Source: an uncultured virus (IMG/VR IMGVR_UViG_3300026522_001173)
Lineage: Duplodnaviria > Heunggongvirae > Uroviricota > Caudoviricetes
Reading direction: 5' to 3' (one strand)
DNA: 64,000 nucleotides
IMG/VR virus record: IMGVR_UViG_3300026522_001173
Shown here: piece by piece, positions 9,653 to 24,911 of the stretch
Layout of the letters: the number at the start of each line of letters is the position of its first letter
Position numbering within the stretch: position 1 is the first letter of the stretch
Notes under the pieces: model-generated
Database searches by the model: none
What the model was told of the DNA's origin: nothing
What the model saw: only the letters and a program-made list of their open reading frames with translations
Program-made: the position numbers and the translations under genes

Positions 9653-9845
9653 TACCGTCTCCTCCTTCCTTTGTCTCGCAGATGGCGATCTCTCCGATGC
9701 TGTCTCCCGGTATCAGGACGGTCACTCTGCGTTTATCCCCGAGGAGAAACTTCAGCAGCCTTTCCCTTACCGTGAGGCTCTTGCAGGTCACGATCCCGCC
9801 AGTCTGCGGTTTCTTTGAAACACTGATTTTCAATTTGTGCTTCAT
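9627..9845 (-). CDS. Conserved hypothetical phage protein
   Basis: 72 aa with AAGGAG RBS; first gene behind the bipartite promoter motif. Confidence 0.6.
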   Translation of the reverse strand: MKHKLKISVSKKPQTGGIVTCKSLTVRERLLKFLLGDKRRVTVLIPGDSIGEIAICETKEGGDGNGQSHVSA

Positions 9846-9889
9846 GGCTTTCGCTCCTTTCCGAGAGCCTTATTTCCTGCCCTCTATCT

Positions 9890-9923
9890 GGTAGCCTTGG
9901 GAAGGACGGTAATCTGACGGTTT
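9890..9923 (-). promoter_or_regulatory. Bipartite motif AAACCGTCAGATT-N14-GGCTACC, copy 2
   Basis: Matches 5377-5410 and lies upstream of the PolA operon. Confidence 0.6.
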
Positions 9924-9933
9924 TGAAAAAAGA

Positions 9934-9979
9934 AAATAAAAAAAGCCTGCAGGCTCCCCAAAGAGATACCCGCAGGCAT
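9934..9979 (-). repeat. 46-bp terminator hairpin and direct repeat, left boundary of the cargo island
   Basis: 42 of 46 bases match 23903-23948. Minus strand forms a GCCTGC...GCAGGC stem followed by T7. Confidence 0.85.
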
Positions 9980-9997
9980 GTAATACTGTTTATTCAG

Positions 9998-10660
9998 CTA
10001 TAACAAGCTTATATATAGATATGACTTTCCGTCCATATCCGTATTATCGAGTTTTAATTTTACTGTAACTTGGCTCAGTTCTACCCCTGATAATAGCCTT
10101 ACTTTTGGCAAGTAAAACGTCAGCACCTGATTACCTTCAATATGTCTGTCGTAATCAAATTGGCATTGTTCAACATTAAGCTGTTCAAACGAGAGTCCTT
10201 TTGCAATTTCAAGAAGGTCTTCATCTCTCAGACTATACTCCTCTGCAAGATTAGTAGTGTCATCTGGAATATACAGTCTCTCCACTTTATTGCAGTCTTG
10301 AACCTTATCAAGAAGGCTTGGAACGTCATCTTCACTGATCCAGCGATTCTGCGATTCATATCTGACAAGATACTTTTTCTGCCTGTCACTTAATTGCTGA
10401 TACAGTTCTTCACTGGACAAAGCAATTCTATGCAGAAGGTATAGATTTTCAATTCTTACCAGTTCAGTCTGTGAAATACAACTAAAAAAGCTGTCACCCT
10501 CTGCCAAATTACAAAGATCCATTTCCTCCTGGTCGTACCACCAAGGATTGTCCGGATGCGTTGCACGAGGCTTGATTTCTCCACCTGGAAATTGATCTTC
10601 AATCTTACCGCAGTAGACTAAAAGCTTTATTTTTCCTATCGGGTCATTTCCCATCTTCAC
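9998..10660 (-). CDS. Hypothetical protein with C-terminal MqsR/RelE-like domain
   Basis: YSLRDEDLLEIAKGLSFEQ...VLTF...VTVKLKL...YLYIS resembles MqsR-type toxins, but the terminal SFH reads SLL. Confidence 0.4.
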   Translation of the reverse strand: MKMGNDPIGKIKLLVYCGKIEDQFPGGEIKPRATHPDNPWWYDQEEMDLCNLAEGDSFFSCISQTELVRIENLYLLHRIALSSEELYQQLSDRQKKYLVRYESQNRWISEDDVPSLLDKVQDCNKVERLYIPDDTTNLAEEYSLRDEDLLEIAKGLSFEQLNVEQCQFDYDRHIEGNQVLTFYLPKVRLLSGVELSQVTVKLKLDNTDMDGKSYLYISLL

Positions 10661-11660
10661 TGTCAGGCTCCTTCAATCCCGCAAGAATCATGCCTTCTGA
10701 GGTATATGCATTCGGCATCATACTCTTTGTATGTTCCTGTAAAAGAATCTCGTGGTAGGCATTCCCGAAAAGTCCCAGATCAATCTCACCTTTGAGAAGA
10801 CTGCTCGCTGCCTTAAGTGTGCGCTTGATTCCGGTAAGCTCTCCACGATAATATTCAAGGTTCATGTAGTTATGTTGGCATTCGTGGTAGAGGCTGCCGT
10901 CATCCCATTGAAAATAGCCAAAGCCCGTCATATCTGTGTTATCTGCACTCTTTAATCTGCGTTCGTAGGCTTTCTTATCTTTAACCGGGTCCGTATTGAT
11001 TTCAGTTACCACGAAGGGGCCGCAATTGAGTCCATCGCTTTCAGGATACCTCAGGTCAACCACAATATCACCCTTCTGGAATGGTGTCGGGAAATAAAAC
11101 CACAGCCCTTCAAAGCTATTCCAACAAAGGTCTGTTTCATGCTCGTTAAGTCCGACAGCCGTAATGTCGATAATATCTCCGTTGCTTTTGATACGCATAC
11201 ACATATCGAGATTGCGGTCATTTATCTTCAGCTTCTCTACTTTAATCTCAACGACATCCATTCCTTCGTTTTCGCTATCAGCCTCCTTCATGCATTCCTC
11301 ATAGGAAGAAAACACACCATCTGAATCCGCAAAACACCTATCGCCTTGATAAAGGCTGGAATACCGATACACCCAGCCTTCCTGATATTTCCGAAAGTCA
11401 GATATGAGTCTTTTGTGGAGATCAATATACTCGGCGAGAAAACTATGCAGGCTTGGAATTTCAATACAGTTTATTCTTTCTGCCACGCTGCAATCCGGCA
11501 TTGTATCGATTATCTCCGTCCATGCCATAAACTTCTCTTCTAAGTTCATACTGCGATTCTGGTAGATAAGCCACGCAGCTTCAAGCGAATTAAAGACATA
11601 CCCTGTCTCAGTCAGATAATCTCGGATATCTTTGGAATTAATGAAGTTTGTTATGTTCAT
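10644..11660 (-). CDS. Unknown-domain protein, paralogue 1
   Basis: Aligns by eye with 11657-12775: INSKDIRDYL...EKFMAW..IIDT.PDC and PTPFQKGDIV. Confidence 0.8.
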   Translation of the reverse strand: MNITNFINSKDIRDYLTETGYVFNSLEAAWLIYQNRSMNLEEKFMAWTEIIDTMPDCSVAERINCIEIPSLHSFLAEYIDLHKRLISDFRKYQEGWVYRYSSLYQGDRCFADSDGVFSSYEECMKEADSENEGMDVVEIKVEKLKINDRNLDMCMRIKSNGDIIDITAVGLNEHETDLCWNSFEGLWFYFPTPFQKGDIVVDLRYPESDGLNCGPFVVTEINTDPVKDKKAYERRLKSADNTDMTGFGYFQWDDGSLYHECQHNYMNLEYYRGELTGIKRTLKAASSLLKGEIDLGLFGNAYHEILLQEHTKSMMPNAYTSEGMILAGLKEPDSEDGK

Positions 11661-12775
11661 TTTGGTTCTCCTCTCTGCAGTAAGCTTTTTATATCCGCAT
11701 CATACTCGCCGCATAAGGCTGTCCTGGCACATCTAAGTTCGCCCTCTCTGACAAGAAAACGATATACATTTGCAAATGTATCTTCACCGATTTTCCTTTG
11801 CAGTTTCATAGACAATAGTTTAAGAATTTTATCTTCGGCAGATTCACTCGGCTCGTAGTATTCCATATCAAGGATTTCTCTTGCGCCCATAATCCCGAAT
11901 CCATCAAAATCGATATAATAGGCACCCTTATACATAGAATAATTTCTTGATTTCGGTGTGATAACCGCATACCCGTATGCCATCATATCGGATGAATCGA
12001 CATGGTGCTTTCTCCCTTCAAGCTGTCGGTCTGCCCGTGATATTCGTCTATCATCTGCCGGAACACCGCGTTCAAGCATTGTTCTTGAATCCCAATAGTC
12101 AAAAGTATCAAGAACCAGTTTTTCTTCACAGGATTGTATAATATCTCCATGTCTGAACGGTGTCGGAATAATGAAATACAGCCCCATGAGTTCAGCTTCA
12201 ATATCCAGATCTCTATCGTTCATTCCTTCAGAAAAAGAGACATCGATAATATCAAGGTTCTCGTCACATTCAAGATAGATATGCGGCTTGGAATCCGGAG
12301 AGTTCAGTTCCGCTCTGGATATCCTGTAAAAATCAGCTCCGCCATCATCCTCCATAAGGACCGACTTGATGTACTTTACGCAAGCCTCATAGGTTGTAAA
12401 ATAACATTCCTGCCCATTTCTCCATCCATCGTCATCAGCGTTGTAACGGAAAGTCTTGTGATGCCATCGGCTGACATAGTAGATATATTTCCCGTGAGAA
12501 TTATCCTTAAACCGATCGATCTTTCTGAATTGCAGATCCATATACTCCCGCAGAAACGCATGATAAGAAGAAAGCTCCATATGATAGACACCTGCCGCTT
12601 GCGTACAGTCTGGTTCTGTGTCTATGAGTTCTTTCCATGCAGCAAATTTCTCATTAAATGTCGTGCGACTATTATGGTAAATGATTGCCGCCTTTTCCGG
12701 GAGTGTAAACTCATGTCCAATTTCTTTGATATAATCCGTTATTGCCCTTGAAGGTATGTACTTGTATATATCCAT
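11657..12775 (-). CDS. Unknown-domain protein, paralogue 2
   Basis: IPSRAITDYI...EKFAAW..LIDT.PDC and PTPFRHGDII. ATGA overlap with the next gene. Confidence 0.8.
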   Translation of the reverse strand: MDIYKYIPSRAITDYIKEIGHEFTLPEKAAIIYHNSRTTFNEKFAAWKELIDTEPDCTQAAGVYHMELSSYHAFLREYMDLQFRKIDRFKDNSHGKYIYYVSRWHHKTFRYNADDDGWRNGQECYFTTYEACVKYIKSVLMEDDGGADFYRISRAELNSPDSKPHIYLECDENLDIIDVSFSEGMNDRDLDIEAELMGLYFIIPTPFRHGDIIQSCEEKLVLDTFDYWDSRTMLERGVPADDRRISRADRQLEGRKHHVDSSDMMAYGYAVITPKSRNYSMYKGAYYIDFDGFGIMGAREILDMEYYEPSESAEDKILKLLSMKLQRKIGEDTFANVYRFLVREGELRCARTALCGEYDADIKSLLQRGEPK

Positions 12776-12777
12776 AG

Positions 12778-13485
12778 TTACCCATCCAATCGAAATTCTT
12801 TCATATCGTTCAGTCTAAGCAGTACCGGCTCCTCGCCATAAGCAGCTCCGACATCAATATCAATCCATGTGTCTGTCTTTATGATTTTCCCTCTGAAAGT
12901 CTCCCCATAACTCATGCTTGGAGTGTGACCGAACACGGTTACGATATCTCCATAATATTTGTCCGTAAGTTCCGGCCATGCCCACAGCAGTTCCTCTGCA
13001 GTATAGTCTGAAGGTCTTTTTTTAGGGCTGAAATTATCAAGTCCGGCATGCACCAACAGATATCGTTTCCCTTCAACTGCGATTTCTTCATGAAGTGGAC
13101 AGTTCCGTAAAAAATCAAAGATTTTTCTCTGCTGCCTGCGGGGGATATTCTTTAAGGCTGCAAGGGTAACATCTCCGCCGTTTAACATATAATTGTTCAG
13201 AAGTTCCATGTTATCGGCAGATGTGATTGTATTTATATTCTCTTCCGTGACCTCATCAAGAATAAACTCACAGGAAAGCAGCATCGCTTCATGGTTGCCC
13301 ATAAGCATATGAACATTATCCTGTCCTATGATCCACTGGAGCATTTCCACTCCGCCATCTCCGTTGCGGTCTATAACATCACCTAAAATATATAGTTCGT
13401 CCTCGCCGTTAAAGTCGGCTCTGTTAAGGAGCAACTTAAAACTGCTCAGCGGGTAACCGTGCAGATCAGATATGACGTACACCAT
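12778..13485 (-). CDS. Calcineurin-like metallophosphoesterase (PPP / lambda phosphatase type)
   Basis: SDLHG, GDVIDR, GNHE, VHAG, FGHTP and IDVG motifs. Confidence 0.92.
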   Translation of the reverse strand: MVYVISDLHGYPLSSFKLLLNRADFNGEDELYILGDVIDRNGDGGVEMLQWIIGQDNVHMLMGNHEAMLLSCEFILDEVTEENINTITSADNMELLNNYMLNGGDVTLAALKNIPRRQQRKIFDFLRNCPLHEEIAVEGKRYLLVHAGLDNFSPKKRPSDYTAEELLWAWPELTDKYYGDIVTVFGHTPSMSYGETFRGKIIKTDTWIDIDVGAAYGEEPVLLRLNDMKEFRLDG

Positions 13486-13500
13486 GTTTTTCAGTTCTCC

Positions 13501-13833
13501 TCATTCATCAAGATAGCAGTGATAGTGCCTGCTATAATCCCGCTTAAGTTGATACTCCTTAAGCCCAAAGGCACAAGCGATCTTCTCAATAGTCGCATCA
13601 TCAATGTGAGGGCTGCAGTATATAATTGCTGTTCCTCTTGCACCTATAACGACACGTCCTCTCGGATAGTAATCAAAGCTCTTTCCTGTATTCAAGCAGT
13701 TCCATGCTTTCCACAGTCTTTCGTGATTATATGAATCTCCGGCTTTTGATACTGCCTCCGGAGCATCTACACTCCCGAATGGAAACATCTTGATCTCATC
13801 ATCTACAATCCAAAACACGCCCTGTACTGCCAT
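13501..13833 (-). CDS. Hypothetical protein with FDYYPRGRV motif
   Basis: Coupled ORF inside the operon with conserved-looking NH..LW, YYPRGRV and HYHC segments. Confidence 0.65.
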   Translation of the reverse strand: MAVQGVFWIVDDEIKMFPFGSVDAPEAVSKAGDSYNHERLWKAWNCLNTGKSFDYYPRGRVVIGARGTAIIYCSPHIDDATIEKIACAFGLKEYQLKRDYSRHYHCYLDE

Positions 13834-13844
13834 ATCGCAACTTC

Positions 13845-14366
13845 CTATTCGACATAATCCATCCACGGTATTTGTATTACTTCTCGTCCTTTCATCTGCG
13901 CATACTGAATCGTATTAAAGGTTCCGCCTTTCTTTCCGCTTCTTTCATCGTAAACGGCGATAACAATCCCGCTATGATCAACCATATACTGGTTTCTTTC
14001 ATGGTAGGCGCGAACATGGTATGGAATCGTAGTAACCACATGTACTAAATCCGCCTTTTCTTGTACTGCACATGCCTCCGGAGATAATTTATTATGCCCC
14101 TCAAACGGCAATGCAATCTCAAGTTTGATAGCCGGATCAGTTTCTTTCTTCTTCAATACAATTTCTGCAGCCCATGTATCAACTCCCAGAGCGTTACCGC
14201 AGATAAAATGAGTAACCCCATCCGAAATAGCAGTGTTAATTGCATCTTCAAGCGCAGAGAGTAGTTTCATGCACCGAGAATCTTCCTTATCATCACTCCA
14301 GGGGAATGCATTAGGCCTGTGCCCGGTAAAGCAGCATGTATTTATAATTTCTTTAGTTATGCCCAT
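13845..14366 (-). CDS. SLOG-family protein (YpsA/DUF1273-like)
   Basis: CFTGHRP, FICGNALGVDTWAAE, RNQYMVDHS..VIAVYD and GGT motifs. Confidence 0.9.
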   Translation of the reverse strand: MGITKEIINTCCFTGHRPNAFPWSDDKEDSRCMKLLSALEDAINTAISDGVTHFICGNALGVDTWAAEIVLKKKETDPAIKLEIALPFEGHNKLSPEACAVQEKADLVHVVTTIPYHVRAYHERNQYMVDHSGIVIAVYDERSGKKGGTFNTIQYAQMKGREVIQIPWMDYVE

Positions 14367-14398
14367 GAGATCAGGCCTCCTCTAATCCTTGTGATCAA

Positions 14399-14432
14399 AT
14401 TATATCAAGCAATATGGAGTAAAAAGCGGACA
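14399..14432 (-). promoter_or_regulatory. Promoter: 18-bp box, N10, TATAAT
   Basis: Minus strand TGTCCGCTTTTTACTCCA-N10-TATAAT upstream of the SLOG operon. Confidence 0.6.
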
Positions 14433-14492
14433 TCAAATTTATGATAGAAATGAGTAACATTTCACCGACTCTTTCAATCGTCTTCAGCAGAA

Positions 14493-16775
14493 TCATACTT
14501 GCTTAGACCTACGAGAAGGTAAATTCCTTAATTTTACATCCATGCAGACCTTTTGATATGTTTCCGGGTAGTTAGCTTTAAACCATAGCATTTTCATTAC
14601 CGCTATCGAATAGGAGACTGCGTGGCTTTTAGGGAACAGGTACTTTATTTTCTTAAGCGACTCGGTGTACCATTCCGGCACATTGTGTTCTCTTAAGATT
14701 TCATCCCACTTCTCACTGTACTGTCCTTTTCTTGTTGTCTCCATAATCGTATATGCAGTTTCCTTATCAATTCCCATCTTTAAAAGATAGATGTAGATAT
14801 CATCACGGAATGCAATCACCTCGGACATGGTGGCAGTTCCATTTTCAATCAGCTCAACATTTTCACTGAATACCCCGGTTCCGTGTTCAAGGCCGTATGC
14901 TTTAACAAATTCACCCCAGTTTTGAAAATGCGTCTGGTTAATATCTTCCAGAAAATAATCCGATGAAAAATCCGGCAGCTTCAGTAATCCGGAATCAAAA
15001 TTGATTTCTGACAACTCGACTCCTGTTCGCTCTGACAGCATACGCAATATTGTAGGATTATCGTGTCCGAGAATATCCATATCAATGAAATTGGTTTCAA
15101 GCGTATGCCAATCAAAATGCGTCTTTATGCCGCTTGTTTCATCTCCAGGAACGCAATATTCAATCGGCGTGTACTCGAATATCTCTTCATCGTTCGGGAT
15201 GAACAAGTACTTACCTGGGTTGATTCCCGTGTCCCGTTTTATTCCGGTTAATCTGTCAACAACTTCACTGATTTCATCACTGCTAACATCCGGGCAAAGA
15301 TCGTTATCCTCGGAGTAATACGCATCAACCAGTCCTCGTGCATGTTTCCAAGCTATTGTTGCTATCGTACCTGCCCGGCAAACCTTGTACTGCTTAAGAA
15401 TACCTGATGTGTAATTTACTATGTCACTTTGAATCTCACCGGAAAAATTCAAATCAATATCGATTTTCTTGTTGCCGTTCAATCCGAAGAATGTTTCAGG
15501 AACAATGTTGTAACCATCTTTGTGCATAGGTTTGCCGCAATGAGGACAAACCTTATCGGGCATATCCTGATATATCAGATCAACAAGTTTGTTCTCCGAC
15601 TGCACTGCATATTCAAAATATGAATCCTCGCTGCAGTAATAATGTGCAGGCAGAGGATTAACACCCGTTATCCCGAGGAAATATGCCGCAAGGCTTGCTG
15701 CTACACAGCCTCTGGATGTCACAGGATATCCTTTACTTTTTGAATATTCCACCTGCTTCATAGCAATCCAAAAAGATAGATAATCTTCATCTGAGATAAC
15801 CTTCAATTCATCATCCAGTCTCGAAATGACACTGCTCGGTAGATCGTCCTTGCCGTATTTTCTATGAGCTTCATTGTAGATATCAGCTGTGAGTTTTTGG
15901 ATTTCACTATTGTCGATGGCGGGAATGTATCTTTTCTCAGAGAGAGGACTGATATTTTCTATTCTGTCCGCAATTCTTTGAGTATTGGTAACGACTACCT
16001 CCATAGCCTTATCTTCGCCAAGCCATGCGAACTCGGATAGCATCTCATCCGTAGACAGCAGGCTCATACAGCAGTCTTTTTTATAATCGTCATACCCATG
16101 CCTTAACACCTTGTAAATGTCGACATCTTCTTTGTTAAGGTAGTACGCATCACTTGCGGCACATACAGGAATATGAAACCTCTGTCCAAGCTTAACAATC
16201 TCTGAGGAGGCACCTCTACTCAGCTCTGCCTTTTCCTGATCGGAGATCTGCCTTTCTTTCAACGCTCCTATTAAAGCTTCCTCCGGCACTATCTCAAGAT
16301 AGTCAAACCATTCAGCCATATGACAAACTCTGTCGGCATCTCCCATAAGGAATGCCCGGTAAAGGCATCCATCTGCGCCTGCGGAGCCTATAATGATGCC
16401 TTCACGGTGCTTGTCAAGCACTCTTTTCGGAAGAATCGGCATATCCCTGTAATATTCCATGTTTGCCTTTGAGAGAAGCTTATACAGATTCTTTCTTCCT
16501 GTTTCGTTTTGCACGAGAAGTACAACAGGAAATGTACCGTTTTCCAACTCAACGCTGATTTCAAGACCATAGATGATTTTATATCCGAGAAAACTTTTTG
16601 ATGCTCTGTAAGCATCAGGAAACGCCTGCACCGAATCGATGTCGGTCACAGCGACAGCATCCATTCCAAGGTCTATGGCTTTGCTTATTATTTCCCCGGC
16701 ATCGTAAAGTCCGGCCTTCCGGGACATTTTCGTATGACAATGCAGTTCTACTCTCGACAGCTTTATATTTTCCAT
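14493..16775 (-). CDS. polC: Truncated PolC-type DNA polymerase III alpha homologue (PHP, palm, thumb and fingers only)
   Basis: RVELHCHTKMS, SRGCVAAS, VNPLPAHY, CPHCG, DIDLNFSGE, DILGHDNPT and KIKYLFPKSHA are PolC motifs. At 760 aa it lacks the OB domain, exonuclease insert and C-terminal domains. Confidence 0.9.
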   Translation of the reverse strand: MENIKLSRVELHCHTKMSRKAGLYDAGEIISKAIDLGMDAVAVTDIDSVQAFPDAYRASKSFLGYKIIYGLEISVELENGTFPVVLLVQNETGRKNLYKLLSKANMEYYRDMPILPKRVLDKHREGIIIGSAGADGCLYRAFLMGDADRVCHMAEWFDYLEIVPEEALIGALKERQISDQEKAELSRGASSEIVKLGQRFHIPVCAASDAYYLNKEDVDIYKVLRHGYDDYKKDCCMSLLSTDEMLSEFAWLGEDKAMEVVVTNTQRIADRIENISPLSEKRYIPAIDNSEIQKLTADIYNEAHRKYGKDDLPSSVISRLDDELKVISDEDYLSFWIAMKQVEYSKSKGYPVTSRGCVAASLAAYFLGITGVNPLPAHYYCSEDSYFEYAVQSENKLVDLIYQDMPDKVCPHCGKPMHKDGYNIVPETFFGLNGNKKIDIDLNFSGEIQSDIVNYTSGILKQYKVCRAGTIATIAWKHARGLVDAYYSEDNDLCPDVSSDEISEVVDRLTGIKRDTGINPGKYLFIPNDEEIFEYTPIEYCVPGDETSGIKTHFDWHTLETNFIDMDILGHDNPTILRMLSERTGVELSEINFDSGLLKLPDFSSDYFLEDINQTHFQNWGEFVKAYGLEHGTGVFSENVELIENGTATMSEVIAFRDDIYIYLLKMGIDKETAYTIMETTRKGQYSEKWDEILREHNVPEWYTESLKKIKYLFPKSHAVSYSIAVMKMLWFKANYPETYQKVCMDVKLRNLPSRRSKQV

Positions 16776-16801
16776 TTGTATAACCCCCTGTTCTAATCGC
16801 T

Positions 16802-16979
16802 TTATGCCAGATGGATGTCATGGTGATACAGATACATCCATGCGTTAAAATCCGGGATATTGTCAAACACCTGATTATCCAAGAGTTTTTTGTGATATCC
16901 GGGAATATCCAACTTACTGCAATCCATAGTACCTGTTTTTTGTATGTTCGTTATAATCGGGAAAGTTTATAATGTTCAT
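16802..16979 (-). pseudogene. Small ORF apparently frameshifted in an A6 run
   Basis: AGGAGG plus ATG at 16979 gives 21 aa. Removing one A at 16936-16941 joins it to MDCSKLDIPG...HDIHLA. Confidence 0.35.
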
Positions 16980-17020
16980 CTTAGACCTCCTGTTTACTGT
17001 AATCATATTTGTGTGCCGAT

Positions 17021-18637
17021 TTATGGCTCATCAGTTTGTATGGCTCTCTGAAGAAGCGGCCAGACCTTTTCTTTTCCGTAAGGGTCATTCACACCGCTGG
17101 TTTTCCAATCGCGCTCATGTTCCGTATTGTTCCAAAGCTCCCAGAACTTTGCAGCACACTGTTCATTGTCTCTGAGCACTTTCTGTATCTCTTTCAGAAA
17201 ACTTTCATCCGCTATTTCTTCTTCACTGGAAAGTCTAAGCTTGTACAGCGGAGACAGTAGAGGACCATAGCTGTGGAGTTCAAGATCCTGATAAAGCCTG
17301 CCTGACTTTAGCGGCTCCAACCTCCATTCTCCATCTATGTATGGCACTTCAAATAGTATATTGGGAAATACATAATCGTGCTGACTGACAGACTCTATAA
17401 CAATGGCGTTAAATGCTGGTGCATATGGGCGGCAGTCAATCCTTATAATGTCCCCGGTTGTAAAAGGGGTATCTAAATTTAAAGGCAATGATCCGTGACT
17501 GTATTTACTGCTTCGTGACAAGCTAAACGAAGCTTCATCTGTCATAAGCGTTTCAAACCAATTCTCATATGGTTCAAACCAACAAACCTCTCCATCCGGC
17601 GTCAAGTAATACTCATATTTAAGAGAATATTCCCGGCATGCTATGCTCCACAGCTGCACCTTATAAAAACATTCCAGTGACGCTTCTCCTGCCAATCTTT
17701 CAAAGTCTATATACTGAAGTATGCTGTCTCTTCCTGCAAAGAGTCCAACAGGAAACTCTTTAAGAGTATATACATCCTGATCGTACCAGCAGAAAAAGAG
17801 ATACAGCACAGACTGCTCCTGTTTTGAATCAGCATAACTTTCTAAAGCCTGTTCAATATCCTCGAGAGAATTCTGAAAGGAATGCCCGATTACCCAATCT
17901 ATACCCATCCGAATATGCCGGATATCAGCATTTTCTTCTTTCCTTCTAACAACCTCTTCACATATATCATGCAGGATATTTTCCGTTTCAACGAGTCCAT
18001 GAAGTAATTTTATCTTTGTTTCCAAACTGACAGGCGCCTGGCAGATTATTTTATTCAGCTGTATTACACCTAATCCTGTGCTGCAAAGGTGAGATACCAT
18101 AGCAGCCGACATTCCGCATATAGCGAGAATATCTTCTGTACTTAGGTTTTCAGAAATCACATCCCGTCTTTCTTTGCAATCTTCTGCCAAGGCCCTTATA
18201 TCATCAAGCCTGTTAATATCCGTCCAGCATTTTACATCAAGGCGGTATAGCTTTATCTGTTTACCCAGCGAAACAAGCACTGCCATATTGATAAAAGCAC
18301 CGAGGCTTTTACCATCCCATACAGTAAGCCCCGCATCTGCTATTTCACAAAGACGATAATCCAATGCATTGTGTTCATCGTTATCGAATCTGCTGATACC
18401 GCTTCCATCGATACACAAATCCGGATACGGCATGACCTGTTCCGTTTCATCATCTATGAAATAAGCTGTGGCGTTCCCATACCACTTGTCCGACAGATAC
18501 TCCTGCACAGCCCATTCAAAACCGATCCGGCTGCCGAGTACTATATGCGTATCACTTTCAATCAGCTTGTCGAGTCCTGATTTGACCGCATCATCCAGTC
18601 TGAGGTTCATATGTGAGCCAAACACAAATACTGTCAT
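17021..18637 (-). CDS. SLOG-like domain fused to unknown-domain paralogue 3
   Basis: N-terminal VFVFGS...IVLG..G...AVQEYL...ADAGLTVWDGKSLG fits SLOG. The C-terminal part has II..APVSLETK and DTPFTTGDII. Confidence 0.7.
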   Translation of the reverse strand: MTVFVFGSHMNLRLDDAVKSGLDKLIESDTHIVLGSRIGFEWAVQEYLSDKWYGNATAYFIDDETEQVMPYPDLCIDGSGISRFDNDEHNALDYRLCEIADAGLTVWDGKSLGAFINMAVLVSLGKQIKLYRLDVKCWTDINRLDDIRALAEDCKERRDVISENLSTEDILAICGMSAAMVSHLCSTGLGVIQLNKIICQAPVSLETKIKLLHGLVETENILHDICEEVVRRKEENADIRHIRMGIDWVIGHSFQNSLEDIEQALESYADSKQEQSVLYLFFCWYDQDVYTLKEFPVGLFAGRDSILQYIDFERLAGEASLECFYKVQLWSIACREYSLKYEYYLTPDGEVCWFEPYENWFETLMTDEASFSLSRSSKYSHGSLPLNLDTPFTTGDIIRIDCRPYAPAFNAIVIESVSQHDYVFPNILFEVPYIDGEWRLEPLKSGRLYQDLELHSYGPLLSPLYKLRLSSEEEIADESFLKEIQKVLRDNEQCAAKFWELWNNTEHERDWKTSGVNDPYGKEKVWPLLQRAIQTDEP

Positions 18638-18648
18638 AATCGATCCTC

Positions 18649-19227
18649 CTACACCAGATATTCCTTATCGGCAAATGAAACTTTTCTTCCGTCCGGCCCT
18701 ACACGGAGATATGCCTTCCCACCATGATAATCATTGATGTTGAGCCTTTCCCACTCGTATTCCGTATAGGCATCCATCGTTTCAATACCAATTTCGGATA
18801 TAGCAGTGTACGGTTCGATTCCCCAGTGGTGAACATCCCGGAAAGCATATACCTTGTCGTTATAGACCGCTCCTGCGACAGCATAAGCCCCTTCTGAAAC
18901 ATGGATGACCTTATGAGCCTTTGTATCCCAGATAAAAATCACTCCGCCCTGACCGCTGGCTGTGATAAGAATGAAAAGCAGATTATCACCGTCAAGAAGC
19001 GTAGCACGGACAGACTCCACATCCGCCTTGCTTGCATAGAACCAATACGGTTTTATTGTTGAGTAATTGATTTCATACTCCTTTCCTTCGCTTAGATATT
19101 TTGCTATCACATCATCTTTGCAGACCAGCTTGAACTTTAATATATTTCGCATATTATCCTCCGATCTTCTGAACTCAGTCAGAGTCTTTGTTTTTTTCCG
19201 CATTACTTCTTGTTTGCTTCTTTCCAA
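18649..19227 (-). CDS. Hypothetical beta-rich protein
   Basis: 192-aa ORF coupled to the Ada-domain gene; start codon uncertain. Confidence 0.6.
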   Translation of the reverse strand: MERSKQEVMRKKTKTLTEFRRSEDNMRNILKFKLVCKDDVIAKYLSEGKEYEINYSTIKPYWFYASKADVESVRATLLDGDNLLFILITASGQGGVIFIWDTKAHKVIHVSEGAYAVAGAVYNDKVYAFRDVHHWGIEPYTAISEIGIETMDAYTEYEWERLNINDYHGGKAYLRVGPDGRKVSFADKEYLV

Positions 19228-19472
19228 AGCTTATATTTATCTCTCATGCATCTGCCGCAGGGACGGTACCCGGCTGCAATCGCTGTTTCCTCGTCCTTGA
19301 AGAAAACCCTGTGGCTGATATATGCATTTCTGTACTTACTCCTCAGAACAGCATTTGCCGAAGGACAATCCATCCTGCCGTAAATCTTCATATTGCTGTT
19401 CCCACCGTATTCTCCTTTTGTCTCGGAGAGATATGTTGAGCCGTCAGCGGCGGTCAGCTTATACATCTTCAT
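19203..19472 (-). CDS. Stand-alone Ada metal-binding-domain protein
   Basis: IYGRMDC...RVFFKDEETAIAAGYRPCGRC motif with GGAGG RBS. Confidence 0.8.
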   Translation of the reverse strand: MKMYKLTAADGSTYLSETKGEYGGNSNMKIYGRMDCPSANAVLRSKYRNAYISHRVFFKDEETAIAAGYRPCGRCMRDKYKLWKEANKK

Positions 19473-19511
19473 GAGCATTACCTCCAAGTCACTTGTTTTT
19501 TTTCTGATATA

Positions 19512-19545
19512 ATCATACAATACGGCATGGGCACAAAATGACGCA
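19512..19545 (-). promoter_or_regulatory. Promoter: 18-bp box, N10, TATGAT
   Basis: Minus strand TGCGTCATTTTGTGCCCA-N10-TATGAT. Confidence 0.6.
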
Positions 19546-19547
19546 TC

Positions 19548-19578
19548 AAAAAAATAGCGACACCGAAGTGCCGCCATC
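19548..19578 (-). terminator. Rho-independent terminator with UUCG loop
   Basis: Minus strand ATGGCGGCAC-TTCG-GTGTCGCTAT followed by a T run. Confidence 0.75.
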
Positions 19579-19782
19579 TACAGTACAGATTGCTAGGTGA
19601 CAAATTATTTTCTGAACCGATGCCAATTCTGCTACAAATTAAAATCCGCTCTTTTTTTGAACACAGGAACAACTTGCTGTTCCTTGTTTATCTAACTGCA
19701 TCACAGCATATAGGGTCTTGTCGGTACAGCCTTGCTGCTTTAATTAAATTCCCTGATCTGTCTGTTTATATCCTGTTATTCT

Positions 19783-20235
19783 TTATTGGTTTGAAATATC
19801 TTTATTTAACCGTTCATATATTTCTTCCGGTGTATCTTCGTTTAGATCAAAAGACCGAGAGAACAGATGACTTGGAACATCATCTTTGTAACCTTCTGTA
19901 AACATAAGCCTGTCAAGCGTAGTGAACACTTCAATTGCGAATACCTGATAGATTTCATTTTCTTTCAGGTAAATATTACCTTCTGAAAATGCAATAAAAC
20001 TCAAATGACGATAAGGGATCATTGCCAGAACGACAGAATCTCTTTCTCCGTAGCATATTACCTGATAAATCAAATCCGCAAAATTACAATATTGTTTGAA
20101 GTGATTCATATCATGCTCTATTTCAGATAATTCATCGGGGTTGCCGCTGAAATATTCATCCTTTAAATCCAATAGGAATTCAGCAGCGGATTCTAATTCT
20201 TCCTTATAGTTCTGATTCTGATTGGCCATAATCAA
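19783..20235 (-). CDS. Acidic hypothetical protein
   Basis: 150-aa ORF with GAGGAG RBS. Confidence 0.65.
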   Translation of the reverse strand: MIMANQNQNYKEELESAAEFLLDLKDEYFSGNPDELSEIEHDMNHFKQYCNFADLIYQVICYGERDSVVLAMIPYRHLSFIAFSEGNIYLKENEIYQVFAIEVFTTLDRLMFTEGYKDDVPSHLFSRSFDLNEDTPEEIYERLNKDISNQ

Positions 20236-20271
20236 TTAACTCCTCTTTTATTTTTATAAGATATTAACATA

Positions 20272-20997
20272 TCAGTCATTGTCAAGTTCTGATGCGAGTA
20301 CATGGATCATATCTATATCCTCCCGAAAAAGGAATTTAACTCTTTCCTTGTCTTCCACAAGATAAGCCAATCCCTTGATTATTTCATTGGCAGTTTTTAT
20401 AGCTTTACTCTGTTCCCAGACAATAAAATCCCCCTCCAGTAATGAATTAATATCCTGTTTCTTCAAAGCTTCTTTAATGCTTCTCTGGATTGTTATGTAC
20501 TCATCATAATCAGCAATCTTATTCCATTTCTTATCATTAAATCCAAACCAGTCAAGAATATAACTGTCAAGCGGAATATGGCACTGTTCAAAATCAAAGG
20601 CACTGATTTCGCTGTAATACTCACGCACACAATAGACATATTTGAATGTCATATTGATCAGTTTCTGCCATAGTCCGACAGACATGCCGTACATATTGTT
20701 TTCACATGTATCTCTATGCCATTTTGAGTAGTTGACCTGTTTTCCGGCAATCACGTTTTCAAAGAATTTATAAATTATCCCTACGATCTGATCTTTGTTG
20801 TCGGACTTGTCTTTATATGAGGGCTGCATTCTCTCATACATAACAGCATCAACCCAGGCTTTATTGATGCAGTATGATAAGACATCTCTATCACTATGAT
20901 TCATAAAATCGATCTTATTATTTTCGATTTTCTGTTTAATTTCTTTTGAGAAAGCCTGATCATAAAAGGCTTTTACATACTTCCTAATTTCATTCAT
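20272..20997 (-). CDS. Hypothetical protein, HhH-GPD DNA-glycosylase-like
   Basis: G..QKLINMTFKY...HIPLDSYIL...W...DFIVW pattern; ORF is solid but the function is tentative. Confidence 0.45.
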   Translation of the reverse strand: MNEIRKYVKAFYDQAFSKEIKQKIENNKIDFMNHSDRDVLSYCINKAWVDAVMYERMQPSYKDKSDNKDQIVGIIYKFFENVIAGKQVNYSKWHRDTCENNMYGMSVGLWQKLINMTFKYVYCVREYYSEISAFDFEQCHIPLDSYILDWFGFNDKKWNKIADYDEYITIQRSIKEALKKQDINSLLEGDFIVWEQSKAIKTANEIIKGLAYLVEDKERVKFLFREDIDMIHVLASELDND

Positions 20998-21044
20998 GGT
21001 ATCTATATCCTTTCACTGTATTTAGCTATCCTAAAGTAGAAGCG

Positions 21045-22511
21045 TTACCACCATTCTCTATCAGGCAGTGGTAATTCTGGCAGGCCTTTTCTACGCCTCT
21101 CATCGTTTAATTTCTTCACCCGCTCCCATTCTCTCTGAGATGCAACGGCTCGTCTGTGCCGTTCTTCAGAATCCTTGCGGCGTTGTTCATCCTCAAACCT
21201 ACGGTCGCGCTCCTCCTGTTCTCTTCTACGGCGTTTATCCGAGATACGGTTTCCTACTGCCGTACCAACTGCAACGGCTGCAGCATCACGTATAAAGCTG
21301 TGACCACTGTCACCGCCTGAGTACTCGTCAGCTTCATCGTATCCCATTTCTGCACGTTCCTGTCTAAGTAGGATACTTTTCTGACGATTCCTTTCAAGCT
21401 GCTCCTGATAAGCCTTTTCCTGCTCTTCATACTCTCGGTCGATGCGATCTATATAATGCTTGACCGCTTCTTCAATGGTCATTGTTGTCCCACTCATTTC
21501 TGCAATCAAAGCACGTATACCGTCTATGGTATTGAATGTAATATTGCCTTTATGCTTTGACTCTACGCATTCTGGCAAATGAAGTTCTGCAAACATTTTA
21601 TTGAACCGAGACTGGTTAACATTGGCTGCTCGAACAACCTCATTTCTAATGTCTCCAAACGGAACACCTCTCATAAACTTATCATAGAGCGTAGGATAAT
21701 TTCCGGTTAAAATAGGCAGCCCTGCATTAAACACCTCTCGACTGATTGGCTGCCTTCTGTCATACAGATCCTTTAATCTAACATATTCTTTAAACTCAAA
21801 AAACTTCATCAGTATTTTTTTGTGTTCAAGGAAAGGCTTATACCGCATATCAAGCTCTGTCAGAACGGAATGTGAGAACAGATCTCCAAGCATATATGCA
21901 AATTCTGTTCTCTGCAAAAACACATACTGGAATATAGGATCATCATTCAGTTGTTGTAAGTCATAATCCTCCCATAAATATACGCTGTAATAAGAGGTAA
22001 ATTCAATGACTCTTCTTTTTGATAAGGCGAGAACGAGCTCGTCTTGTTTTTTAGCAGGATTCGGGTTAACGCATAGCTTTACAAGAGATTTTTTACCGGG
22101 CAAAGACGGAATATCAACCCATACCTCGGTTTCCTTTTCGTAGACAGTTCTTAACTGATGCTCGATTTCTTTAGCTGCATCTTCTGTCTCACTGTCATAC
22201 ATCACATTAACCGTAATCCCGTAAACATATGGGTACGTGTTTATATAATCAACATCTACAGTGCTGACATTGCCATCCTCATTCTTAACAAGGTATTGTC
22301 CACATGCAGTTGTGAAATTTGCATTTGTTCCCACAACCACAGCCGGAAAGCAAATCCTCTTTTCCTTTCGATCTGTCTTGTAGTTCATAAATGTGCTGCC
22401 ACCATAATATGATACAGGGAAATCCACATGGATTCTGTTTGCAATATCAGCGACAACAGCATCTGTATATCGATTGGTGGCTGCATCACTGCACAGCTTT
22501 CTGTCCATCAT
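21045..22511 (-). CDS. Hypothetical protein with charged coiled-coil C-terminus
   Basis: 488 aa with ATGA overlap with the WYL gene. E/R/Q-rich tail surrounds AAAVAVGTAVG. Confidence 0.75.
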   Translation of the reverse strand: MMDRKLCSDAATNRYTDAVVADIANRIHVDFPVSYYGGSTFMNYKTDRKEKRICFPAVVVGTNANFTTACGQYLVKNEDGNVSTVDVDYINTYPYVYGITVNVMYDSETEDAAKEIEHQLRTVYEKETEVWVDIPSLPGKKSLVKLCVNPNPAKKQDELVLALSKRRVIEFTSYYSVYLWEDYDLQQLNDDPIFQYVFLQRTEFAYMLGDLFSHSVLTELDMRYKPFLEHKKILMKFFEFKEYVRLKDLYDRRQPISREVFNAGLPILTGNYPTLYDKFMRGVPFGDIRNEVVRAANVNQSRFNKMFAELHLPECVESKHKGNITFNTIDGIRALIAEMSGTTMTIEEAVKHYIDRIDREYEEQEKAYQEQLERNRQKSILLRQERAEMGYDEADEYSGGDSGHSFIRDAAAVAVGTAVGNRISDKRRRREQEERDRRFEDEQRRKDSEERHRRAVASQREWERVKKLNDERRRKGLPELPLPDREWW

Positions 22512-23680
22512 TTTACATCACTCCTACTCAACGTCTCATATGCAATCCGATATATCTCGCACAGTTCTTCCCTTAAATATTCCGGTTCAAGTACAACGAC
22601 ATTTCGTGCGTAGGTCTTGGCAAACTCCTTCATGGCTCGGTCGTTAGTCCTAACAACAAGCCTGTATTCACCGCTGACTGCATTTTCGGATTTCTCAATT
22701 CTGATATTTGCCTTGCCAAAATAATCGATAGCATCGGAAAGATTGCCGTCCTGATCGTTTTTGAAGACCAACTTTGCAGTTATACTGCGTCCGGGACTTA
22801 ACGAGCTGTTTTGTCTGGCATAGTCGAACACATTATTCCAACTATGATTGATGTCCTTTAATGAAAAACTTGCGACTATGCGCTTTTCCTCATTGCTCAT
22901 TTCTTCGTTATCAGTAATACAAAGCTCTCTGATCCTGTCGATTCGGAAAGTGTCTAAAAATCTGGAACCTTGCTCGACATTTTCTATGAGCTTCTTTACA
23001 TCACTTATCAGGTCTTCCGGAGAACTGTGGCTGCTCCCGCATACCAGACCCACCAGATAAAAATCATTATTGTTCGCAGCAATTCCAAACGGGAACACCT
23101 TCCACACGCGACCGTCTATATGGAACTTTAAATTCTCATCATATGAACCATACTGAAATTCAATCACCCTGTGGTCAGAAATGGCTCTGTCAATCTCCTC
23201 AAGATTATAGAACAGCGGAGAAAACTCGCTGCCCGGATCTTGGGTATCAAGAATATAATGCTTCAAGTTGTGCCTGATGGAAGAAGGCCATAGCTTTTCC
23301 AGCTTTTTGACGATCTCTTCTTTCTGCTTTCTTGAAATGTGCTTTGCAAAGATAACGTTATAGATCAACGATTGCAGTTCACTCTTTTCAAATTCGTGTT
23401 CATAATAAAAATCAGTATAAACTGCGCTCTCTTCATCATCCTCCACATCAATCTCTTCGCCGTTTCTTTTCCTGATACTGCATTTGATATGCTCCGGATC
23501 ATAGTACATGACCTGTTTAAGGTTTCTGCTCAGCGTTTTTCGATTGACGGTAAGATTATAATCCGATTTGAGTTTTTTACTGATTTCCTCCTGTTTAAGC
23601 ACATGATCAGCATCTGTGTATTTCCTCAAAACCTCAATAATAAAGGGAATGATCATTTTCTTTGGCACATCTGAACTCAT
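22508..23680 (-). CDS. WYL-domain transcriptional regulator (wHTH-WYL-WCX)
   Basis: IIEVLRKYTDADH.L...VNRKTLSRNL wHTH; IDRAI...IEFQY...VFPFGI...FYLVG...FRIDRI WYL domain; VVVLEPEYLRE WCX domain. Confidence 0.92.
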   Translation of the reverse strand: MSSDVPKKMIIPFIIEVLRKYTDADHVLKQEEISKKLKSDYNLTVNRKTLSRNLKQVMYYDPEHIKCSIRKRNGEEIDVEDDEESAVYTDFYYEHEFEKSELQSLIYNVIFAKHISRKQKEEIVKKLEKLWPSSIRHNLKHYILDTQDPGSEFSPLFYNLEEIDRAISDHRVIEFQYGSYDENLKFHIDGRVWKVFPFGIAANNNDFYLVGLVCGSSHSSPEDLISDVKKLIENVEQGSRFLDTFRIDRIRELCITDNEEMSNEEKRIVASFSLKDINHSWNNVFDYARQNSSLSPGRSITAKLVFKNDQDGNLSDAIDYFGKANIRIEKSENAVSGEYRLVVRTNDRAMKEFAKTYARNVVVLEPEYLREELCEIYRIAYETLSRSDVK

Positions 23681-23710
23681 TAGAAATCCCTCCTGATATC
23701 TTATACAGAT

Positions 23711-23890
23711 ATTCTATCTCATTAGGTGGCACTTATTTGCCCCATGTATTGAAGCATCATCGGCAGTAATTAAAATATTCGAGTCACTTTCAAAAGAACT
23801 GCTTATCACATACCTTTGATTCTATTATAAATACATATATGGGGCTTTTTTTACTCATCACTATTATAGCAGAAAATGCCGAAAACTCAA
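23711..23890 (-). promoter_or_regulatory. WYL gene control region: two box-N10-(-10) units plus a sigma-A promoter
   Basis: TGGGGCAAATAAGTGCCA-N10-TAGAAT (23711-23744), TGAGTAAAAAAAGCCCCA-N10-TATAAT (23824-23857) and TTGAGT-N16-TATAAT with extended TG (23863-23890). Confidence 0.6.
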
Positions 23891-23902
23891 TGAAATTTTT
23901 GT

Positions 23903-23948
23903 AAATAAAAAAAGCCTGCAGGCACTCCGAAGAGATACCCACAGGCAT
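23903..23948 (-). repeat. 46-bp terminator and direct repeat, right boundary of the cargo island (lysis operon terminator)
   Basis: 42 of 46 bases match 9934-9979; lies directly after the endolysin stop. Confidence 0.85.
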
Positions 23949-23965
23949 AAAGATGATATATGGAT

Positions 23966-24910: not shown

Positions 24911-24911
24911 A

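Follow-up and report, generated by a model that had tools for sequence, protein, structure and literature searches.

The region described here is a block of about 14 kb (positions 9934-23948) within a 64-kb stretch of DNA from an uncultured Caudoviricetes virus (IMG/VR record IMGVR_UViG_3300026522_001173; the full 64,000 nucleotides are referred to as the window). It contains 14 open reading frames (ORFs), all on the minus strand and spanning 9998-23680, among them genes for a WYL-domain regulator, a minimal PolC-type DNA polymerase, a YpsA-type SLOG protein, a metallophosphoesterase and three proteins with a domain that we call X (Table 1). The GC content of the block is about 41% compared to about 51% in the flanks; in 1-kb bins the GC fraction ranges from 0.346 to 0.446 between 10001 and 24000 and from 0.48 to 0.54 in the adjoining bins. 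Searches against PHROGs identified genes for terminase, portal, capsid/major head, tape measure, tail, holin and endolysin (23966-24952) to the right of the block, and for phrog_408, an exonuclease, a Gp2.5-like single-stranded DNA-binding protein (SSB), a family-A polymerase (PolA, 5422-7437) and serine recombinases to the left. The block is hosted by a prophage, which is read along the minus strand. ORF calls, GC bins and PHROGs assignments thus agree with an earlier reading of the letters and ORFs without database searches (the sequence-only reading), which had described a co-oriented, AT-richer 14-gene block between lysis and PolA modules. The limits it had set for the block are the outer edges of a pair of 46-nt direct repeats. 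One additional ORF of 52 aa (23790-23948), whose start lies within the terminator hairpin, is probably spurious as a gene.

Evidence for insertion came from a comparison of 80 IMG/VR loci encoding relatives of the endolysin. One of the 80 (L104) is the same phage with its cargo, and eight of the other 79 are cargo-less (L170, L174, L175, L176, L178, L179, L181 and L182). Their gene order is lysin, a spacer of about 540 nt, phrog_408, exonuclease and SSB, followed by PolA in seven of the eight; the contig of L181 ends earlier. The remaining 71 loci show neither the cargo nor that replication module within the fetched flank. Six cargo-less phages have a lysin-phrog_408 spacer that shares 69-72% identity with positions 9653-9933, directly to the left of the block. 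A second variant of the phage (L023), with 94.6% nucleotide identity over 13.9 kb, has the island intact as far as its contig reaches, and the island DNA had no match among 50,697 phage records. The stretch or a part of it is contained in 20 sequencing runs from nine studies, most of which are labelled bovine gut and four skin metagenome. The eight related phages without the block bear out the earlier proposal of a prophage cargo slot. In the best explanation, a temperate phage of rumen Clostridia acquired the block as cargo, with the insertion located behind its endolysin terminator; joined to the repair function proposed below, this explanation is favoured only tentatively.

Table 1 Features of the island and its boundaries. 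All positions refer to the window.
Feature	Position	Strand	Remarks
Left 46-nt direct repeat	9934-9979	-	Scored as intrinsic terminator in scan; after last cargo gene
p220	9998-10660	-	No match in Pfam, PADLOC, PHROGs, NCBIfam
X338, domain X protein	10644-11660	-	Paralogue of X372
X372, domain X protein	11657-12775	-	Paralogue of X338
PPP-family metallophosphoesterase, 235 aa	12778-13485	-	Pfam Metallophos 48.5 bits; phrog_246 NinI-like E 3e-34
p121 (YYPRGRV protein)	13501-13833	-	Likely start Met12, giving 110 aa; commonest X partner
YpsA-type SLOG protein (SLOG173), 173 aa	13845-14366	-	Pfam YpsA 80.8 bits (cut-off 27.7); PDB 2nx2 (YpsA) E 2e-8
Extended -10 element TGATATAAT	14399-14407	-	Before SLOG gene/operon 3; by eye
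Minimal PolC, 760 aa	14493-16775	-	PHP, palm, thumb, fingers; Pfam, NCBIfam, 3f2b alignment
Small ORF, 21 codons	16914-16979	-	AGGAGG ribosome-binding site; in the 245-nt p538-PolC gap (16776-17020)
p538	17021-18637	-	N-terminal Rossmann-like region of about 160 aa and divergent domain X (residues about 173-491; hhalign)
p192	18649-19227	-	No family match in four libraries; one phmmer match in 85 X loci (L069)
Ada-Zn-like small protein, 91 aa	19203-19478	-	From revised ATG 19478; GGAGG 6 nt upstream
Weak extended -10-like element TGATTATAT	19507-19515	-	Before Ada-Zn; by eye; absent from consensus-scan list
Intrinsic-terminator-like hairpin	19552-19579	-	Closes operon 1 after p150; 12 pairs, then T-run
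p150	19783-20235	-	Last gene of operon 1; no family match in Pfam, PADLOC, PHROGs, NCBIfam
p241, conserved WYL partner	20272-20997	-	Adjoins WYL in L020 and L102
p488, 488 aa	21045-22511	-	Start overlaps WYL stop codon; C-terminus charged and repetitive
WYL regulator (WYL390), 390 aa	22508-23680	-	N-terminal HTH-like region, WYL, WCX-like C-terminus; Pfam, PADLOC
Palindrome ATATCT-N5-AGATAT	23696-23712	-	Perfect; candidate operator between P1 and WYL ribosome-binding site
Promoter-like site P1, TTGAGT-16 nt-TATAAT	23863-23890	-	TG before TATAAT; 10/12 consensus matches, best on this strand; upstream of WYL
Right 46-nt direct repeat	23903-23948	-	91% identical to 9934-9979; hairpin and T-run directly behind endolysin stop, judged by eye

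Domain X has no entry in Pfam, and its relatives escaped a word-based search with X372, which returned only the query itself. In contrast, when the paralogues X338 and X372 served as queries in an exhaustive HMMER search, 1,723 representatives were found at E ≤ 0.001, 1,105 at 1e-10 and 303 at 1e-30. Most members are about 340 aa long, which is also the span of the match in X338 and X372; tandem duplications occur as well. Ten members were looked up, all of them without a name, and a Pfam scan of 95 members gave three with one sporadic sub-threshold match each. Conserved motifs are PTPFxxGD and DxSDM, and the invariant or near-invariant positions comprise S9, P55, D56, H72, P204, P206, F207, G210, D211, D260, D263 and E305. 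The AlphaFold2 model of X is confident (pLDDT 88.7, pTM 0.87); fold searches with it gave no clear match, neither to Y-family polymerases nor to any other solved fold. Within the window, X338 and X372 are 30% identical (BLASTP E 6e-37). The third copy, in the C-terminal 365 aa of p538, is divergent (BLASTP E 0.13) and was detected when an alignment of 11 p538 rows was compared with one of 95 X rows (hhalign probability 97.2%, E 2.8e-11, 277 columns); the stretch LNLPxPFxxGDI is conserved in the p538 family. The three paralogues of the sequence-only reading are therefore recovered, two by BLASTP and the p538 copy at the profile level only. The distribution of X is sporadic, with 6 of 399 genomes of the class and 6 of 217 genera, and an alignment scan of IMG/VR confirmed one of 92 pattern stretches, which was the same phage. 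Searches of the phage collection (tblastn) with X372 and p488 gave no match, and p538 gave a single weak one (25% identity over 55% of the query). Hypervariability of X338 between the two copies of the phage was considered and rejected, since protein identities of 89-100% are spread across cargo and backbone alike.

To find out which cargo genes accompany X elsewhere, as the sequence-only reading had suggested, we scanned metagenomes with a 12-row alignment and confirmed 413 relatives among 501 pattern matches. The best 80 loci and five genome loci formed a set of 85 loci (922,463 bases), which was dereplicated at 85% X identity to 50 groups including the window; neighbours within 8 kb were considered. 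With 15 cargo proteins as phmmer queries against the 85 loci, the counts were 32 for the phosphoesterase, 28 for p121, 17 for WYL, 13 for SLOG, 12 for p538, 12 for PolC (some weak and domain-level), 11 for p241 and one for p192, whereas p488, p150, Ada-Zn, p220 and the 52-aa ORF were not found in any of them. HMMs of 40 neighbour clusters likewise revealed no hidden relatives of p488, p192, p150, p220 or Ada-Zn. Counted as neighbour clusters in the 50 groups, p121 is present in 23, WYL in 19, the phosphoesterase in 12, p538 and SLOG in 8 each and p241 in 6. Other neighbours in the same 50 groups are a 188-aa family (u188) and a 686-aa AAA protein (9 each), DUF2779/Cas4 and AAA-M41 (7 each), ADP-ribosylglycohydrolase (6), NADAR and YAcAr SLOG (4 each), and PAD_porph and RtcB (3 each).

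We then counted seven window families, namely p121, WYL, metallophosphoesterase, YpsA-SLOG, p538, p241 and PolC-like polymerases, in those groups with at least 6 kb of flank, the window excluded. At least one of the seven was present in 26 of 31 groups and at least two in 18 of 31, and none of 79 control phage loci (782,571 bases) matched any cargo protein by the same procedure. Gene order is partly retained as well. Locus L020 contains WYL, p241, p241 and NADAR, with p538 ... AAA, SLOG, p121 ... X on the opposite strand, and L102 contains WYL, p241, a 1241-aa PolC and NADAR, and SLOG, p121 ... p538. Common to the window, L020 and L102 are the order p538 ... SLOG, p121 ... X and the WYL-p241 pair. 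Seven families and X paralogues hence recur together in independent metagenome and genome loci, and because of this recurrence beside X and the shared gene order the island is not an accidental pile of genes. The assumption that all 14 genes belong to one system did not hold, as p488, p150, Ada-Zn, p192 and p220 are non-recurrent and may be passengers. The polymerase, for which a central part had been envisaged, is an accessory, with PolC-like genes in 3 of the 31 groups.

These counts also bear on the possibility that the block is a mere accumulation of unrelated morons in a permissive slot behind the lysis genes. Such an origin would account for the absence of p488, p150, Ada-Zn and p220 from the 85 loci and the lone p192 match, for the widely varying composition of the sister loci (the other X-encoding loci) and for the position behind a terminator, which is typical of morons. 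It is at odds with the contrast between 26 of 31 groups and 0 of 79 controls, with the local order common to L020 and L102, with the uniformly lower GC content across the island and with the maintenance of the island in the second phage variant. For the recurring genes it is largely refuted, and for the block as a whole we regard it as very improbable. Slightly less probable still is the capture, by recombination, of a leftover replication module from a different mobile element, be it a satellite, a plasmid or a second phage. Here one could point to the direct repeat that flanks the block, to the presence of a polymerase in a phage that has PolA, and to sister loci with DnaB-like ATPases or with ParA, integrases and LexA-like repressors (each in 3 of the 50 groups). 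The flanking repeat, however, is the phage's own terminator, and a hairpin resembling the island terminator also sits behind the lysin of L114. Family scans detected no integrase, initiator, primase, helicase or partition gene in the island, and domains for binding the clamp and the duplex, which a replicase would be expected to have, are missing from the minimal PolC.

The most frequent partner of X, p121, is a small protein with the conserved motifs GIFW, SKSGxxxNH, YYPRGRV and DxSxHY, whose Atlas entry begins only at Met12. Its structural model is confident (pLDDT 88.7), and fold searches gave no clear match. There is no sequence relative of p121 in the PDB, and profile searches with the X, p121 and p241 alignments returned nothing below E 0.02. 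A prediction of an X372-p121 complex, run without controls, scored 0.00. In three sister loci the p121 domain lies inside larger proteins (L092:2104-3417, L093:4095-6257, L083:13733-14677), which either have it fused to LRR_5 repeats and a zinc module of the Cys_rich_CPCC type or include a FHIPEP-matching region (E 6e-29). SLOG173 precedes p121 directly in most groups in which its family occurs. The phosphoesterase resembles lambda phosphatase (PDB 1g5b) over its full length, NinI, and ApaH at its N-terminus; the ApaH models stayed below their cut-offs.

The regulator at the head of the block exceeds the Pfam cut-off for WYL (23.4 bits versus 21.8) and matches the PADLOC WYL model (E 8.5e-17). 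The WCX domain (18.1 versus 23.9 bits) and the Arg_repressor DNA-binding domain (19.5 versus 27 bits, E 8e-4) are below their cut-offs, and no relative was found among PDB sequences at E ≤ 0.1. The invariant residues of its conserved partner p241 are G108, Q111, K112, N115, K119, H140, P142 and D144. HMMER searches of p241 against Pfam and PDB sequences were blank, whereas the Atlas structure comparison listed an AGOG cluster (TM 0.51/0.53), Ogg with a helix-hairpin-helix (HhH) motif (0.42/0.49) and DUF2400, all within 0.42-0.53 and under the bar of the tool. In Pyrobaculum AGOG, the catalytic lysine and aspartate are 32 residues apart, as are K112 and D144 in p241. An AGOG/Ogg-type HhH DNA glycosylase fold is, at this stage, a lead only; AGOG sequences for a direct comparison were sought in 21 genomes and 14 controls, and the family was found in none of them.

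Most of the gene assignments of the sequence-only reading agree with the family scans: the WYL gene and its position heading the block, SLOG173, the metallophosphoesterase, Ada-Zn (Pfam Ada_Zn_binding 31.3 bits, cut-off 23; PADLOC PDC-S40 at the domain level, E 4e-10) and the polymerase core with PHP and DNA_pol3_alpha, the latter below the NCBIfam cut-off. Two other assignments were not confirmed. The N-terminus of p538, taken for a second SLOG domain, has no Pfam match, a BLASTP E of 0.43 against SLOG and an hhalign probability of 1.2% against YpsA SLOG in shallow alignments of 4 and 7 rows; a relative in L091 contains a GDCFGAD stretch that presumably resembles the SLOG glycine motif. For p220, described as MqsR-like, four family libraries were blank and the sole PDB row is an unrelated acetyltransferase (E 1.1).

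The polymerase is a reduced form of PolC. Its residues 7-744 align to residues 115-887 of the 1041-residue chain of G. kaustophilus PolC (PDB 3f2b), Pfam assigns DNA_pol3_alpha with 112.7 bits, and the PHP match is unbroken over residues 10-156. Across the PHP, palm, thumb and finger regions it is about 40% identical to cellular PolC, the replicative C-family polymerase of Firmicutes. Its catalytic motifs DIDLNFS and DILGHD agree with 3f2b in every residue; the PHP motif TDH is changed to TDI. It differs from the cellular enzymes by its truncated build, by scores below the NCBIfam cut-offs (NF001688, 688.4 versus 873 bits; TIGR01405, 640.7 versus 1043 bits), by a very long branch and by its location in the cargo island of a phage with its own PolA. 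RNase_T, HHH_6 and tRNA_anti gave no match in Pfam, and the protein is devoid of the N-terminal and OB domains, the DEDDh exonuclease insert, and the clamp-binding and HhH C-terminus. Only two relatives of the same build were found among 5.8 billion proteins (98% and 57% identity, the latter partial). The next matches were cellular PolCs, and the best relatives with full coverage are exonuclease-less forms. Single-protein scans of genome and viral contigs for PolC relatives returned the same phage only, and two short-form candidates from a tblastn search of the phage collection turned out to be full-length genes of 1269 and 1435 aa. In a tree of PolC-like proteins, the X-linked polymerases are on branches of 3.7-4.1 changes per column with a risk of long-branch artefacts, and we do not claim a common origin. 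In the nearest genome (G001, 86% complete), the 760-aa query found a phage fragment and a weak PHP match and no full cellular PolC, which gaps in the assembly may explain.

The PolC parts that have no place in the 760-aa protein appear as separate genes or fusions in the neighbourhoods of X. In L046, a polymerase of 735 aa with PHP, palm and fingers comes directly after X, as does one in L095 that is truncated where the contig stops; in L060, one of 853 aa follows about 0.5 kb after X. The p538 gene of the window, which bears a domain X, adjoins the polymerase on its upstream side. In L072 (8214-10238), X and a DNA_pol3_alpha domain form one fused protein with RtcB encoded behind it, and in L083 (9989-12500), a Pol3-alpha-like gene of 488 aa stands between X and RtcB. 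Both loci encode a 270-aa DnaB_C ATPase before X, their polymerases are PHP-less, and WYL together with a 690-aa AAA protein heads the operon. HHH_6 is fused to DnaB_C in L077 (9446-11251) and L099 (9991-11376). The u188 gene is usually separated from X by at most one gene on the downstream side, and its long forms carry an RNase_T/DEDDh exonuclease (L067:11244-12431, L096:11112-12434). Eight of ten long X proteins tested have cREC_REC fused to the C-terminal end, and Cas4-like nucleases or DUF2779 proteins are present in sister loci.

A module for general damage tolerance or mutagenic synthesis, analogous to ImuA'-ImuB-DnaE2 and serving the replication of phage or host rather than conflict, would fit several of these observations. 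The polymerase is of the C family and without exonuclease, and its PHP histidine is changed; a RecA-like DnaB_C ATPase, X and a Pol3-alpha-like protein follow each other in L072 and L083 in an order that mirrors imuA-imuB-dnaE2; PafBC- and DriD-type WYL regulators respond to DNA damage; and the window encodes an Ada-Zn domain. Against such a role stand the X model, which matched neither a Y-family polymerase nor another solved fold, the Pfam scan, which detected no DnaB_C or ImuA-like gene in the window, and the rarity of PolC among X loci. In addition, the enzymes for ADP-ribose and cyclic phosphates in the sister loci suggest conflict chemistry. The polymerase of the window is moreover derived from PolC and not from DnaE, and the regulator is a WYL protein and not LexA. 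We judge this explanation improbable.

The 14 genes are arranged in three apparent operons, WYL-p488-p241-p150, Ada-Zn-p192-p538-PolC and SLOG-p121-phosphoesterase-X372-X338-p220, for which a uniform promoter architecture had been proposed. Extended -10 elements and the terminator after p150 are in line with this proposal, whereas no common -35 element could be established across the three operon starts and the search for an operator common to the three upstream regions gave only short words at chance level. A half-site of the ATATCT-N5-AGATAT palindrome occurs again at 20249-20264. For Ada-Zn the ATG at 19478 is the more probable start, because the start of the 124-aa ORF falls inside the terminator hairpin. 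In the gap between p538 and PolC, the small ORF is followed by a near-palindrome, GATATTCCCGGATATC, and the gap contains two ATATCCCGGAT-like words, one of them within GATATTCCCGGATATC; together with the small ORF this region could be a leader or attenuator. On the plus strand, TTTGATATAATC-like extended -10 words lie at 12721-12736 and 19499-19514, antisense to the 5' ends of X372 and Ada-Zn, and may represent antisense promoters or chance.

Four RNA-library runs were compared with positions 7001-27000; run X16 originates from one study, and X17 and X18 from one sample of another. The cover consists of assembled contigs, which provide no information on strand or abundance, and RNA libraries may contain DNA. 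Contigs of X16, X17 and X18 cover 19583-23825 near-continuously. Their right ends at 23825 and 23818 are located 38-45 nt downstream of P1, and the left ends of X17 and X18, at 19585 and 19583, adjoin the hairpin behind p150. Operons 2 and 3 are almost uncovered in X17 and X18 and show scattered low cover in X16, and none of the three runs covers the lysis and tail genes at 24343-27000. This is a hint that the WYL operon is switched on in lysogens and the remainder is off.

Among the remaining cargo proteins, p488 has a weak match to phrog_5218 as its only result in Pfam, PADLOC, PHROGs and NCBIfam, and three relatives besides itself among 5.8 billion proteins. Outside the island, the left end of the prophage (1542-5075) carries three neighbouring serine-recombinase genes of 523, 140 and 512 aa (phrog_95, phrog_7701), the 140-aa gene with a match limited to the DNA-invertase part. 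Beyond the terminase lie a gamma-glutamyl cyclotransferase moron (43781-44248; phrog_2520, E 5e-50) and a gene for a 626-aa DNA methyltransferase (46724-48604; phrog_116, phrog_38038).

PADLOC-DB 2.0.0 assigned no system to the 15 proteins; it returned WYL, a weak ShosA match (E 0.0017) and the domain-level PDC-S40, and none of its models represents X, p121, p241, p538 or the minimal PolC. This agrees with the sequence-only reading, which did not recognise the combination as a named system. Around X in the sister loci, 10 of 15 scanned loci contain PADLOC matches within 9 kb (23 of 150 proteins sent, from 259 eligible, at E ≤ 1e-8), a rate for which there is no baseline. The matches include IetA-like AAA proteins, a dGTPase, OLD/AriA-like ATPases, type IIG restriction-modification and several PDC candidates. 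At L018:15786-16988 a defence-type dGTPase (PADLOC E 3e-48; Pfam HD and HD_assoc) is divergently oriented beside a WYL gene.

The WYL regulators BrxR and CapW control defence operons, and the block could accordingly encode an effector- or signal-based anti-phage defence in which the WYL protein acts in a similar way, SLOG senses or makes a nucleotide and the polymerase or X is the effector or the maker of a product. We consider this, the chief competitor of the repair reading given below, possible, though on balance unlikely. The PADLOC matches near X, the IetA-like AAA ATPase in 7 of 50 groups, the fit of WYL390 to defence-associated WYL models and the apparent expression of operon 1 in the lysogen all speak for it, and the sporadic occurrence of X and its highly modular neighbourhood are both typical of defence islands. 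Moreover, SLOG proteins of the YpsA clade have been tied to nucleotide-centred conflict systems in the relevant part of PMC6459960. On the other hand, family scans of the window revealed no nuclease, TIR, SIR2, pore former or protease, and no cyclase or CD-NTase was found there; judged by its sequence, the polymerase appears to retain the parts for templated synthesis; and the sister loci carry sealers and healers (RtcB, cREC, phosphoesterase) rather than killers.

We tentatively favour a reading in which the block is one instance of a recurrent, unnamed and modular gene set, namely an inducible module under WYL repression for the reversal or repair of damage to nucleic acids; we rank it above the alternatives and yet place it somewhat short of an even chance. 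It rests on the nature of the recurrent enzymes, namely healing and sealing enzymes, hydrolases that act on ribose or ADP-ribose adducts and a template-dependent polymerase, and on the fact that no killer domain was seen in the window. A further reason is that the nearest published idea, as far as the pertinent sections of PMC9503650 go, is the undoing of ADP-ribosylation made by an invader. Between the two mechanisms offered by the sequence-only reading, we thus lean to repair or damage tolerance, as suggested by palm motifs, thumb, fingers and the enzymes of the sister loci, and not to the making, sensing and removal of a signal; family scans found no nucleotide cyclase or effector in the window.

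According to this repair reading, the core parts would be domain X (three copies here including that of p538), p121 and the HTH-WYL-WCX regulator, with the PPP-family phosphoesterase, the YpsA-type SLOG protein and the WYL-linked p241 as frequent additions and an exonuclease-less minimal PolC in a minority of loci. The lysogen would transcribe WYL-p488-p241-p150 from its own promoter to its own terminator, as the RNA contigs hint. By analogy to other WYL regulators, the WYL protein may silence operons 2 and 3 and release them upon binding a ligand derived from nucleic acid. A lesion or adduct could then be removed from the nucleic acid, for which p241 and SLOG are candidates and NADAR or ADP-ribosylglycohydrolase would be the counterparts in sister loci. 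Ends might subsequently be cleaned by the phosphoesterase, or by X-cREC fusions and RtcB in sister loci, and the gap could be refilled by the proofreading-less minimal PolC, with X and p121 as putative system-specific parts for recognition or targeting. The net effect would be that the lysogen or the phage is protected by undoing damage from phage-host conflict.

Several points weigh against this repair reading. The core of X and p121 has no recognisable fold or motif that points to repair, and a Pfam scan of the window showed no ligase, nuclease, ARG, NADAR or Macro domain. PolC-like genes accompany X so rarely that polymerisation is not a core function, and the five non-recurrent genes may be unrelated to the rest. 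The glycosylase idea for p241 draws on Atlas rows below the bar of the tool, with blank HMMER searches, and the RNA evidence consists of contigs without strand or abundance, in which carry-over of DNA is possible. Finally, the PADLOC matches at 10 of 15 X loci would suit an effector-type defence equally well.

A bolder version, which we regard as rather doubtful, would make X and p121 the defining parts of a widespread system of immunity by repair in gut and rumen Firmicutes as well as in the mobile elements of these bacteria. A WYL sensor would switch on a disassembled polymerase III, whose parts might be the minimal PolC, the DEDDh exonuclease fused to u188 and HHH_6 fused to a DnaB-type ATPase, and X, with a fold not seen before, would redirect these parts to lesions or adducts that enemy enzymes have produced.

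A literature search found no description of this gene set, though it may have been mentioned earlier in neighbourhood tables or supplements. Partial parallels to known systems can be drawn. As in BrxR and CapW operons, a regulator of the HTH-WYL-WCX type heads a mobile and sporadic set of operons; in contrast to these, no regulated gene belongs to BREX, CBASS or another PADLOC system. With ImuA'-ImuB-DnaE2 the block shares an exonuclease-less C-family polymerase with accessory proteins, apart from the differences named above. Minimal Pol III alpha proteins of group 2.2 jumbo phages are likewise stripped-down, phage-borne C-family polymerases beside another replicative polymerase; in the portion of PMC7824862 that deals with them, they are split into two proteins, have no PHP domain, are treated as a part of replication and are not linked to WYL, SLOG or X. 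SLOG173 belongs to the YpsA family, of which prophage SPbeta encodes the paralogue YoqJ (PMC6459960); it differs from the cases treated in the relevant part of that paper in that it is not coupled to gpsB and forms a conserved pair with p121 in the neighbourhood of X.

The closest parallel is offered by neighbourhoods of ARG, phosphatase and NADAR regulated by WYL or Nudix, which were proposed to undo invader-made ADP-ribosylation (Iyer, Burroughs, Anantharaman and Aravind 2022, PMC9503650); the same work also treats contexts of cREC, SLOG, NADAR and WYL. In the sections concerned, a WYL regulator is predicted to keep the operon off and a calcineurin-like phosphatase is present, comparable to WYL390 and the Metallophos protein of the window, and the neighbourhoods are modular and fast-diverging with variable accessories, such as the NADAR and ADP-ribosylglycohydrolase found in sister loci of X. 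The window itself, unlike the ARG-centred systems, has no ADP_ribosyl_GH, Macro or NADAR, and ADP-ribosylglycohydrolase is present in 6 of the 50 X groups. The core of X and p121 is absent from those sections, which mention no polymerase either. The partner ARPP is described there with an invariant cysteine and glutamine, both of which X lacks, and the ARG-centred systems are reported from Actinobacteria, Planctomycetes and Proteobacteria, whereas the X set stems from gut Clostridia. WYL-controlled, modular conflict systems around nucleic acids or ADP-ribose are of a kind already known, and what is new here is a core of two families, X and p121, without an assigned fold or function.

If the repair reading is true, it would give a first functional context to the X family, which comprises at least 1,723 sequence clusters and has a confident fold model without a clear known relative. 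It would also add a new class of WYL-controlled systems to the few that are proposed to protect by undoing damage and not by killing, and the minimal PolC would be the first PolC-derived polymerase recruited outside replication. The island, with about 14 kb and three operons, is a compact and testable gene set. Even if the mechanism is wrong, the pairs X-p121, SLOG-p121, WYL-p241, X-polymerase and X-cREC are firm leads for the annotation of thousands of genes that are listed as hypothetical in gut metagenomes.

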